From the IMG/VR virus record IMGVR_UViG_2529293240_000017: a stretch of DNA of 11,141 nucleotides; one strand, 5' to 3'. The position numbers were made by a program, and so were the translations under genes. This DNA is from a virus. Its lineage: Duplodnaviria > Heunggongvirae > Uroviricota > Caudoviricetes. Shown piece after piece: positions 5,570 to 5,650 of the stretch (the stretch's first letter is position 1; the number at the start of each line of letters is the position of its first letter). Under the pieces are notes generated by a model, which was not told where the DNA came from, searched no databases, and saw only the letters and a list, made by a program, of their open reading frames with translations.

Positions 5570-5650
5570 TGGACCGCCATCGGGGACCCGCCCCCCGCAC
5601 CAACAACCCTGTTATCGTGTCGTCTGCTCTTCCTGATAAGCTAATGGCGG
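5570..5650 (-). pseudogene. degenerate tRNA-like element (Arg-tRNA-like relic)
   Basis: Acceptor-like pairing CCGCCAT/ATGGCGG, D-arm TTAGCTTATCAGGAAGAGCA, a T-stem CGGGG/CCCCG and terminal CCA are present. No canonical anticodon stem-loop, and the T-loop is GGCGGGT instead of TTCGAAT. Confidence 0.4.

Follow-up and report, generated by a model that had tools for sequence, protein, structure and literature searches.

A non-decoding tRNA-shaped element in the argN slot of a lambdoid prophage tRNA array: a probable relic with a chromosomal relative

Between the genes for tRNA-Ile2/Met(CAU) (ileZ) and tRNA-Arg(UCU) (argO) of a lambdoid prophage lies an 81-nt tRNA-shaped element, here called X, which we read with moderate confidence as the relic of a tRNA, unable to decode, that fills the place of argN and is co-transcribed with its neighbours and probably still processed. 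The kind itself, a 'tRNA pseudogene' or 'tRNA-OTHER' in a phage array, fits what is known; the spread of X across E. coli, its modular origin and its link to an element on the E. coli chromosome, Y, are new.

Structure and setting of the element

We analysed X in its window, the whole 11,141-nt stretch of the IMG/VR virus record IMGVR_UViG_2529293240_000017. The array lies entirely on the minus strand, in the order ileZ (5733..5658), X (5650..5570) and argO (5556..5480). Its features, from upstream to downstream and with RNA positions counted along X, are as follows.

5910..6698 (-): antiterminator Q gene, upstream of the array (Pfam PF03589, E=6e-52; 'antitermination protein' by PGAP in an identical prophage)
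5777..5796 (-): intrinsic-terminator-like hairpin with a U run, in the interval between Q and the array (weak Rfam terminator-type matches at 5770-5800)
5743..5771 (-): candidate sigma-70-like promoter TTGCGA-17-TATTAT, just upstream of ileZ (consensus scan only, 9/12 matches)
5658..5733 (-): ileZ, tRNA-Ile2/Met(CAU) (ARAGORN; Rfam, 72.5 bits; tRNA-Ile by PGAP in an identical prophage)
5651-5657 (-): spacer between ileZ and X, 7 nt
5570..5650 (-): element X, 81 nt, tRNA-shaped, in the argN slot of the array (sequence, MFE cloverleaf, argN alignment, relaxed ARAGORN)
5644..5650 (-): X acceptor stem, 5' strand CCGCCAU (RNA 1-7), pairing with AUGGCGG at 5574-5580; identical to argN
5626..5641 (-): X D arm, GCUU AUCAGGAA GAGC (RNA 10-25) (sequence and MFE fold)
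5598..5625 (-): X centre, AGACGACACGAUAACAGGGUUGUUGGUG (RNA 26-53), 28 nt, remodelled (MFE and centroid fold)
5581..5597 (-): X T arm, CGGGG GGCGGGU CCCCG (RNA 54-70), with a lesioned loop (sequence)
5570..5580 (-): X acceptor stem, 3' strand AUGGCGG, with discriminator U73 and encoded CCA (RNA 71-81); identical in argN, Y and a third element, Z
5557-5569 (-): spacer between X and argO, 13 nt
5480..5556 (-): argO, tRNA-Arg(UCU) (ARAGORN; Rfam, 68 bits)

Genes for DUF968, RusA and antiterminator Q precede the array on its own strand, and the hairpin at 5777..5796 is, by its position, a candidate tR' equivalent. On an E. coli chromosome in which X and its spacers are 100% identical to those of the window, PGAP gives the order Q, tRNA-Ile, an unannotated gap, tRNA-Arg and lysis genes.

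Elsewhere in the window, about 700 nt downstream of the array and in the prophage late region, a full-length match to Rfam STnc100 (RF02076, 132 bits) occupies 4594-4783 on the minus strand. Two 100% identical, inverted IS3-family copies, IS2-like and with an orfA of 121 aa and an orfB of 301 aa, lie at 1181-2434 and 9888-11141, and a 231-nt inverted repeat involving an IS end joins 92-322 to 9822-10052. The segment between the IS copies looks like a prophage fragment flanked by IS.

Read 5' to 3', X is CCGCCAU UA GCUU AUCAGGAA GAGC AGACGACA CGAUAAC AGG GUUGUUG GUG CGGGG GGCGGGU CCCCG AUGGCGG U CCA, and its MFE fold is a four-arm cloverleaf. The 4-bp D stem includes a U13.G22 wobble and carries an 8-nt D loop in which A14, G18, G19 and A21 are all present. 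In place of an anticodon arm, both the MFE and the centroid fold have the hairpin CGAUAAC-AGG-GUUGUUG at 5601-5617, with 7 bp and a 3-nt loop; neither sequence nor fold offers a 5-bp stem with a 7-nt anticodon loop, and U33 is absent. The T stem keeps its 5 bp, and the loop GGCGGGU replaces UUCRANU, placing G54, G55, C56, G57 and G58 in the loop and forming a run of six G residues. The earlier note had described an 81-nt element at 5570-5650, between tRNA-Ile2(CAU) and tRNA-Arg(UCU), that keeps an acceptor stem, a D arm, a T stem and CCA, and has no canonical anticodon arm and an aberrant T loop. Its coordinates are right, with the RNA on the minus strand, and the sequence and the MFE fold agree with the description throughout.

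Folding energies do not help here. The z-score of X is -1.5, which is not significant, and genuine argN itself scores only -0.9, so that we set z-scores aside as uninformative. We also discarded a role for the G-rich T arm or the plus strand as a terminator, a G-quadruplex or a coding region, there being no U tract and no ORF of at least 50 aa over 5570-5650.

Programs for tRNA detection mostly pass over X. With default settings ARAGORN finds the two flanking tRNAs only, and Rfam RF00005 likewise matches only these, with nothing for X at the gathering threshold (29 bits) or at E<=10 on 401 nt. When its thresholds are relaxed to 70%, a setting that also yields spurious antisense calls, ARAGORN reports exactly 5650..5570 as an 81-nt 'tRNA-???' with a 4-base anticodon. 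Versions of X with an intact T loop also score under the RF00005 gathering threshold. Of the features of a canonical tRNA, X thus has the acceptor stem, discriminator and CCA, and lacks the anticodon arm (with U33 and purine 37), the T54-Psi55-C56/A58 loop and the covariance-model score; it is not a member of RF00005. A weak cmscan match to YrlA (RF02553; 16.2 bits, E=1.2, against a gathering threshold of 69 bits) covers part of X plus ileZ. We rejected a YrlA or Y RNA-like identity, the score being far under threshold and driven by ileZ, with no Ro-binding stem and no rsr context.

Relation to argN

With 361 nt around the array as query, 289 phage records match, mostly Stx2-converting phages at about 88% identity with three annotated tRNAs; the best match is the lambdoid phage mEp460, at 99.2%. 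AP012540.1 gives the three the names ileZ, argN and argO and places them just upstream of stx2A, in agreement with the array order that the earlier note had given for Stx phages. ARAGORN reads argN as a 77-nt tRNA-Arg(UCG).

Aligned with argN, X divides sharply into shared arms and an unrelated centre. Its first 17 nt are those of Stx-phage argN except at position 13 and, in some alleles, position 17; over its last 28 nt the two differ in the T loop and one T-stem base and nowhere else; and between the D stem and the T stem they are wholly different. Arms that are almost base for base those of argN mark X as tRNA-derived. Both elements share the slot, the acceptor stem CCGCCAU/AUGGCGG, U73, CCA, the D stem and the T stem, whereas argN (77 as against 81 nt) has the anticodon arm UCAGC-CUUCGAA-GCUGG, the T loop UUCGAGU and a 9-nt D loop, where X has an unrelated centre and the loop GGCGGGU. 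X therefore sits where argN does, flanked by ileZ(CAU) and argO(UCU) and downstream of Q, without the UCG anticodon arm, and is not argN. The earlier note had also proposed a covariance-model search and an alignment with the arrays of related prophages: the former returned no intact-tRNA match to X, and it is the latter, the alignment with argN of Stx2 phages, that establishes descent from a tRNA.

Other alleles bear on the history of the T loop. In phage phiP27 (stx2e), for which only ileZ and argO are annotated, the X centre is combined with the canonical T loop UUCGAGU, and in another locus (L031) it is likewise joined to that intact loop. X is therefore better described as a distinct allele or lineage whose T loop decayed later than as a gradually decayed argN. 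From the phiP27 type to the window type two stem changes keep pairing, C13 to U (giving U.G) and U63 to C (giving G-C). In the O139:H1 stx2e strain NZ_CP080233.1, PGAP annotates an intact-T-loop X upstream of stx2e as 'tRNA-OTHER', with the exact 81-nt bounds.

One recombinant allele (L054, 7073-7146) carries the argN anticodon arm (UCG) with the lesioned T loop GGCGGGU, and scores 45 bits as a tRNA. Centre and T loop have thus been swapped independently between prophages, and the T-loop lesion is a separate module, which makes the array a mosaic reshuffled through its conserved arms. A further version of the argN scaffold, K, has the anticodon UUU and occurs in the phages PhiR47_1 and vB_EcoM-606R7 (L289 and L290, 343-419 in each), whose arrays run ileZ-K-tRNA-Thr(UGU)-tRNA-Gly(UCC). 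It is annotated as tRNA-Lys in one of the two records and unannotated in the other, and its acceptor pair 7:66 has changed in a compensatory way, from U:A to C:G. U73 together with C1:G72 is unusual for E. coli Arg and Lys tRNAs alike and, to our knowledge, fits no E. coli tRNA-Arg.

Relatives with a hairpin centre

A scan of genome contigs with the D-arm pattern TAGCTNATCNGGAAGAGCAG returned mostly genuine tRNA-Lys genes of Acidimicrobiia and three Escherichia/Shigella loci, and revealed Y, an 81-nt tRNA-shaped element, CCGCCAUUAGCUCAUCAGGAAGAGCAGACGACAACCAGGAUUGUUGUAUGGUACGGGGUUCGAGGCCUCGAUGGCGGUCCA, that stands alone between yahL and yahM. It lies at about 344,558-344,638 of E. coli K-12 HMS174 (NZ_LM993812.1; L285, 2733-2813). 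Y shares with X its length, an identical acceptor stem, D arm, U73 and CCA, and a homologous centre. It differs in having a promoter-like site of its own, a canonical T loop (UUCGAGG) and no variation whereas X decays; its hairpin can be drawn with 7 bp and a 6-nt loop, or with 5 bp and the 7-nt loop CAGGAUU. ARAGORN calls Y a tRNA-Ser(GGA), and Rfam makes no call.

A second relative, the 78-nt Z, is also hairpin-centred and was seen in two IMG/VR prophage contigs (L082, 150-392, and L288), where a decayed ileZ-like sequence is followed by Z and, 2 nt on, by an intact tRNA-Thr(UGU); ARAGORN calls Z a tRNA-Ser(GCU). A scan of IMG/VR that excluded the known patterns returned only Z again, one point variant of X and one chance coding match, and no further centre types.

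We compared the centres, 23-28 nt long, by global alignment against 2000 shuffles. Those of X and Y are related (p<0.0005), as are those of Y and Z (p=0.008) and of argN and K (p=0.0095); X and argN score under the shuffle mean (p=0.98). By this comparison the X centre is clearly homologous to that of Y and is not a decayed argN anticodon arm. The earlier proposal of a decayed third tRNA accordingly holds in part: X is tRNA-derived, sits in the argN slot and has a decayed T loop, but its centre is no eroded argN anticodon arm.

X, Y and Z have in common an 8-nt D loop, AUCRGGAA, and an 'AG' after the D stem. In a manual structural alignment they share the scaffold CCGCCAU..AUGGCGGUCCA, in which a purine-rich strand pairs with GUUGU, and X fits this scheme. 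Set against Y in this alignment, X would carry five additional nucleotides, the succession ACGAC-ACGAU suggesting a tandem duplication, and a loop cut to AGG. A helix is kept where the anticodon stem would be: UCAGC/GCUGG in argN, UCAAC/GUUGA in K, ACAAC/GUUGU in Y and AUAAC/GUUGU in X, with a two-sided change from U:A to A:U between K and Y in the manual alignment. The MFE fold is a four-arm cloverleaf in X, in its intact-T-loop form (X-p27) and in Y.

Searched together with 10 flanking nt at either end, Y turns up in 5170 of the 5426 complete E. coli genomes (95%); 5149 records show 99% identity or more, and none of the E. coli records matched gives it an RNA annotation. Between K-12 and a divergent Escherichia (JAATUR01) all 81 positions are identical, against 89% in the 100 nt upstream and 81% in the 100 nt downstream; the chance of 81 unchanged nucleotides at 10% divergence is about 2e-4. 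This invariance amid diverged flanks, in one deep comparison, suggests that such an RNA can be under selection. A conserved sigma-70-like TTGACA-17-CATAAT lies about 95 nt upstream of Y. The annotated ATG of yahM falls within the 3' acceptor strand of Y, and the divergent Escherichia genome has an interrupted yahM frame. Beside yahN, Y was not found in E. albertii, Citrobacter, S. bongori or another Escherichia species, and so it came with the yahL-yahM segment.

Also at this locus (L285, about 2910-3020), within the ORF annotated as yahM and downstream of yahN on the opposite strand, about 100 nt are almost invariant between K-12 and the divergent Escherichia. On the yahN strand the block ends in a strong intrinsic terminator, GCCCACUCUCCCCUGUGUGGGC, with a U run, and could be a 3'-UTR-derived small RNA of yahN.

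Searches of the literature on ileZ/argN/argO, on yahM with tRNA or sRNA and on lambdoid-prophage pseudo-tRNAs returned no description of X or Y, and no earlier comparison of the X centre with other loci was apparent. What they did return were generic statements on Stx-phage tRNAs and passing 'tRNA-pseudo' or 'tRNA-XXX' remarks on arrays.

Spread and variation in populations

Of 5426 complete E. coli genomes, 1863 (about a third) matched a 101-nt query comprising X and its spacers, in 1864 records, with up to four copies per genome and identities of at least 90% in some 1825 of the records. Across the ranking we looked at 40 of the 1,864 records, in which the site was unannotated except for one tRNA-OTHER and two argN matches. 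In a sample of IMG/VR loci anchored on the ileZ and argO ends only, the middle slot holds an argN-like gene at 75 loci, the X type at 39 and something else at 24, mostly damaged argN alleles. The slot is labile in general, being filled by argN(UCG), by the version with a UUU anticodon, by X or by one of many damaged argN alleles.

To describe variation within X we used 114 copies anchored on the centre only, so that the arms are unbiased in this sample. The T loop is ruined in 95% of them: UUCGAGU is kept in 6, G-run loops range from G4 to about G16, with G5 commonest and the G6 of the window in 14, and 5 have CC variants. U8, a near-invariant tRNA position, has changed to G in 14 copies (12%), and 14 (12%) have acceptor-stem mismatches, the stem being perfect in 88%. 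In one copy a deletion joins X to argO, and one copy is truncated. The centre is almost invariant, with 3 variants in the 114 copies.

At the same loci ileZ has the consensus sequence in 95 of 114 cases and in 10 more differs only by a change that keeps a wobble pair, and argO varies mostly in its T stem, by a compensatory change, or at its 3' end, where CCA becomes CUA. X is thus clearly less constrained than its neighbours ileZ and argO, in a sample whose members are closely related and whose flanks are mosaic; the close relationship of all X copies limits the power of this population test. X has the properties of a tRNA pseudogene, namely tRNA homology without decoding features and more disruptive polymorphism than the flanking tRNAs.

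Several observations concern argO itself. It ends in CUA, not CCA, in 16 of 112 X-type arrays. In the window (5480-5556, minus strand) it pairs U4 with G69 as a wobble, in contrast to the U4:A69 of Stx-phage argO. In vB_EcoS-640R1 (L004) and two related records, unrelated sequence breaks the array within argO, past the anticodon loop, leaving ileZ, X and half of argO.

Discussion

The explanation that we consider probable is that X is a relic of a tRNA, no longer able to decode, that is carried along in a working array. An ileZ-X-argO precursor, with X as its middle unit, would be transcribed either from the promoter-like site at 5771..5743 or by Q-dependent read-through. X would then probably be excised by RNase P and 3' trimming enzymes, since its acceptor/T minihelix and CCA are intact; such a minihelix is the minimal RNase P substrate. 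The product would be unable to form the D-loop/T-loop elbow or to read a codon, and X itself would do nothing. Its persistence would have two causes: the selected tRNAs on either side, which serve the rare codons AUA and AGA, and recombination between prophages, by which the array is reshuffled through its conserved arms. The window copy is itself decayed, with T54, T55 and A58 all G, and in the 114-copy sample we count the G-run slippage, U8G and the acceptor mismatches as decay of X. Also in favour of a relic are the homology of slot and arms with argN, the lack of default ARAGORN and Rfam calls, the cleaner ileZ and argO of the same loci and the general lability of the middle slot. Against a relic stand the perfect acceptor stems of 88% of copies, the stem changes that preserve pairing, the near-invariant centre and the invariance of Y.

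X could instead be functional, a non-decoding tRNA mimic of the lineage of X, Y and Z, which keeps an acceptor/T minihelix with CCA and has a plain hairpin in place of the anticodon arm. Such an RNA could divert enzymes that bind or cleave tRNAs, as a decoy or a competitor, or it could have a regulatory role. The X centre is homologous to that of Y, which is invariant between diverged flanks, has a promoter-like site some 95 nt upstream and is found in 5170 genomes out of 5426. Four-arm cloverleaves are the MFE folds of X, X-p27 and Y alike, and the helix equivalent to the anticodon stem is kept in argN, K, Y and X, with a two-sided change between K and Y; furthermore, a viable phage, mEp460, carries X. 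Nevertheless, a mimic is hard to reconcile with the loss of T54/T55 in 95% of X copies and with unconstrained G-run slippage, U8G and acceptor mismatches. The folding z-scores, -1.5 to -1.9, are not significant, and Y is absent at the syntenic site in E. albertii, Citrobacter and S. bongori, its conservation coming from a single deep comparison. We regard a functional X as unlikely. Nearly the same doubt attaches to the broader idea that X, Y and Z may form an undescribed lineage of non-decoding, tRNA-shaped RNAs with a hairpin for an anticodon arm, in which at least Y would be selected as a tRNA mimic (for example a decoy for tRNA-targeting enzymes or a structured leader controlling yahM) and the prophage copies would be active or recently active paralogues; we consider it unlikely as well.

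The earlier note had offered a tRNA-like structural or processing element as its alternative, which we hold less probable than a relic. If selection acted on the minihelix alone, X might serve as a processing spacer that offers RNase P and 3' exonucleases a defined substrate, so that in the tricistronic precursor ileZ matures correctly at its 3' end and argO at its 5' end. RNase P requires nothing beyond an acceptor/T minihelix, and the distribution of changes would suit such a role, the acceptor stem, U73 and CCA being best kept while the T loop and the anticodon-arm region vary freely; the spacers between units are short and of fixed length, 7 and 13 nt. Yet X and argO are fused by a natural deletion in one array, three arrays do without an intact argO, 12% of copies have acceptor mismatches, and tRNA arrays elsewhere mature without such spacers. 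On balance we find a spacer role quite improbable, less so only than the reading of the tRNA likeness as chance inverted repeats in an intergenic spacer: a z-score of only -1.5 and the lack of a covariance-model match would suit chance, but arms nearly identical to those of argN, in the same slot of hundreds of phage records, and the PGAP call of the intact-T-loop version as a tRNA refute it for practical purposes.

Whichever role is assigned to X, about a third of complete E. coli genomes carry it and annotation pipelines mostly skip it. As a result, prophage tRNA counts and comparisons of Stx-phage arrays are inconsistent, with two tRNAs, two plus an 'OTHER' or three being reported. The retention of ileZ and argO around a labile middle slot indicates which of the phage tRNAs matter to the phage. 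Expression of Y, if demonstrated, would add a new small RNA to the best-studied bacterium and alter the interpretation of the prophage copies.

Comparison with known systems

Read as a relic, X belongs with the tRNA pseudogenes and 'tRNA-OTHER' calls that are annotated in prophage arrays: it is of the same kind, except that the window type scores too low for any annotation. A 2026 paper on stx2i phages mentions arrays that carry the annotations 'tRNA-pseudo-tRNA-Arg', adjoining stx2i, and 'tRNA-XXX' (PMC13641118).

A parallel comes from a lytic phage. Species 1 and 2 of the phage T4 tRNA cluster are small, stable, non-decoding RNAs that are co-transcribed and co-processed with the phage tRNAs. 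X resembles them as a non-decoding RNA in a phage tRNA cluster, a likeness of kind and place rather than of compared sequence. The two cases part in their evolution, species 1 and 2 being conserved in their lytic phage whereas X decays at the population level.
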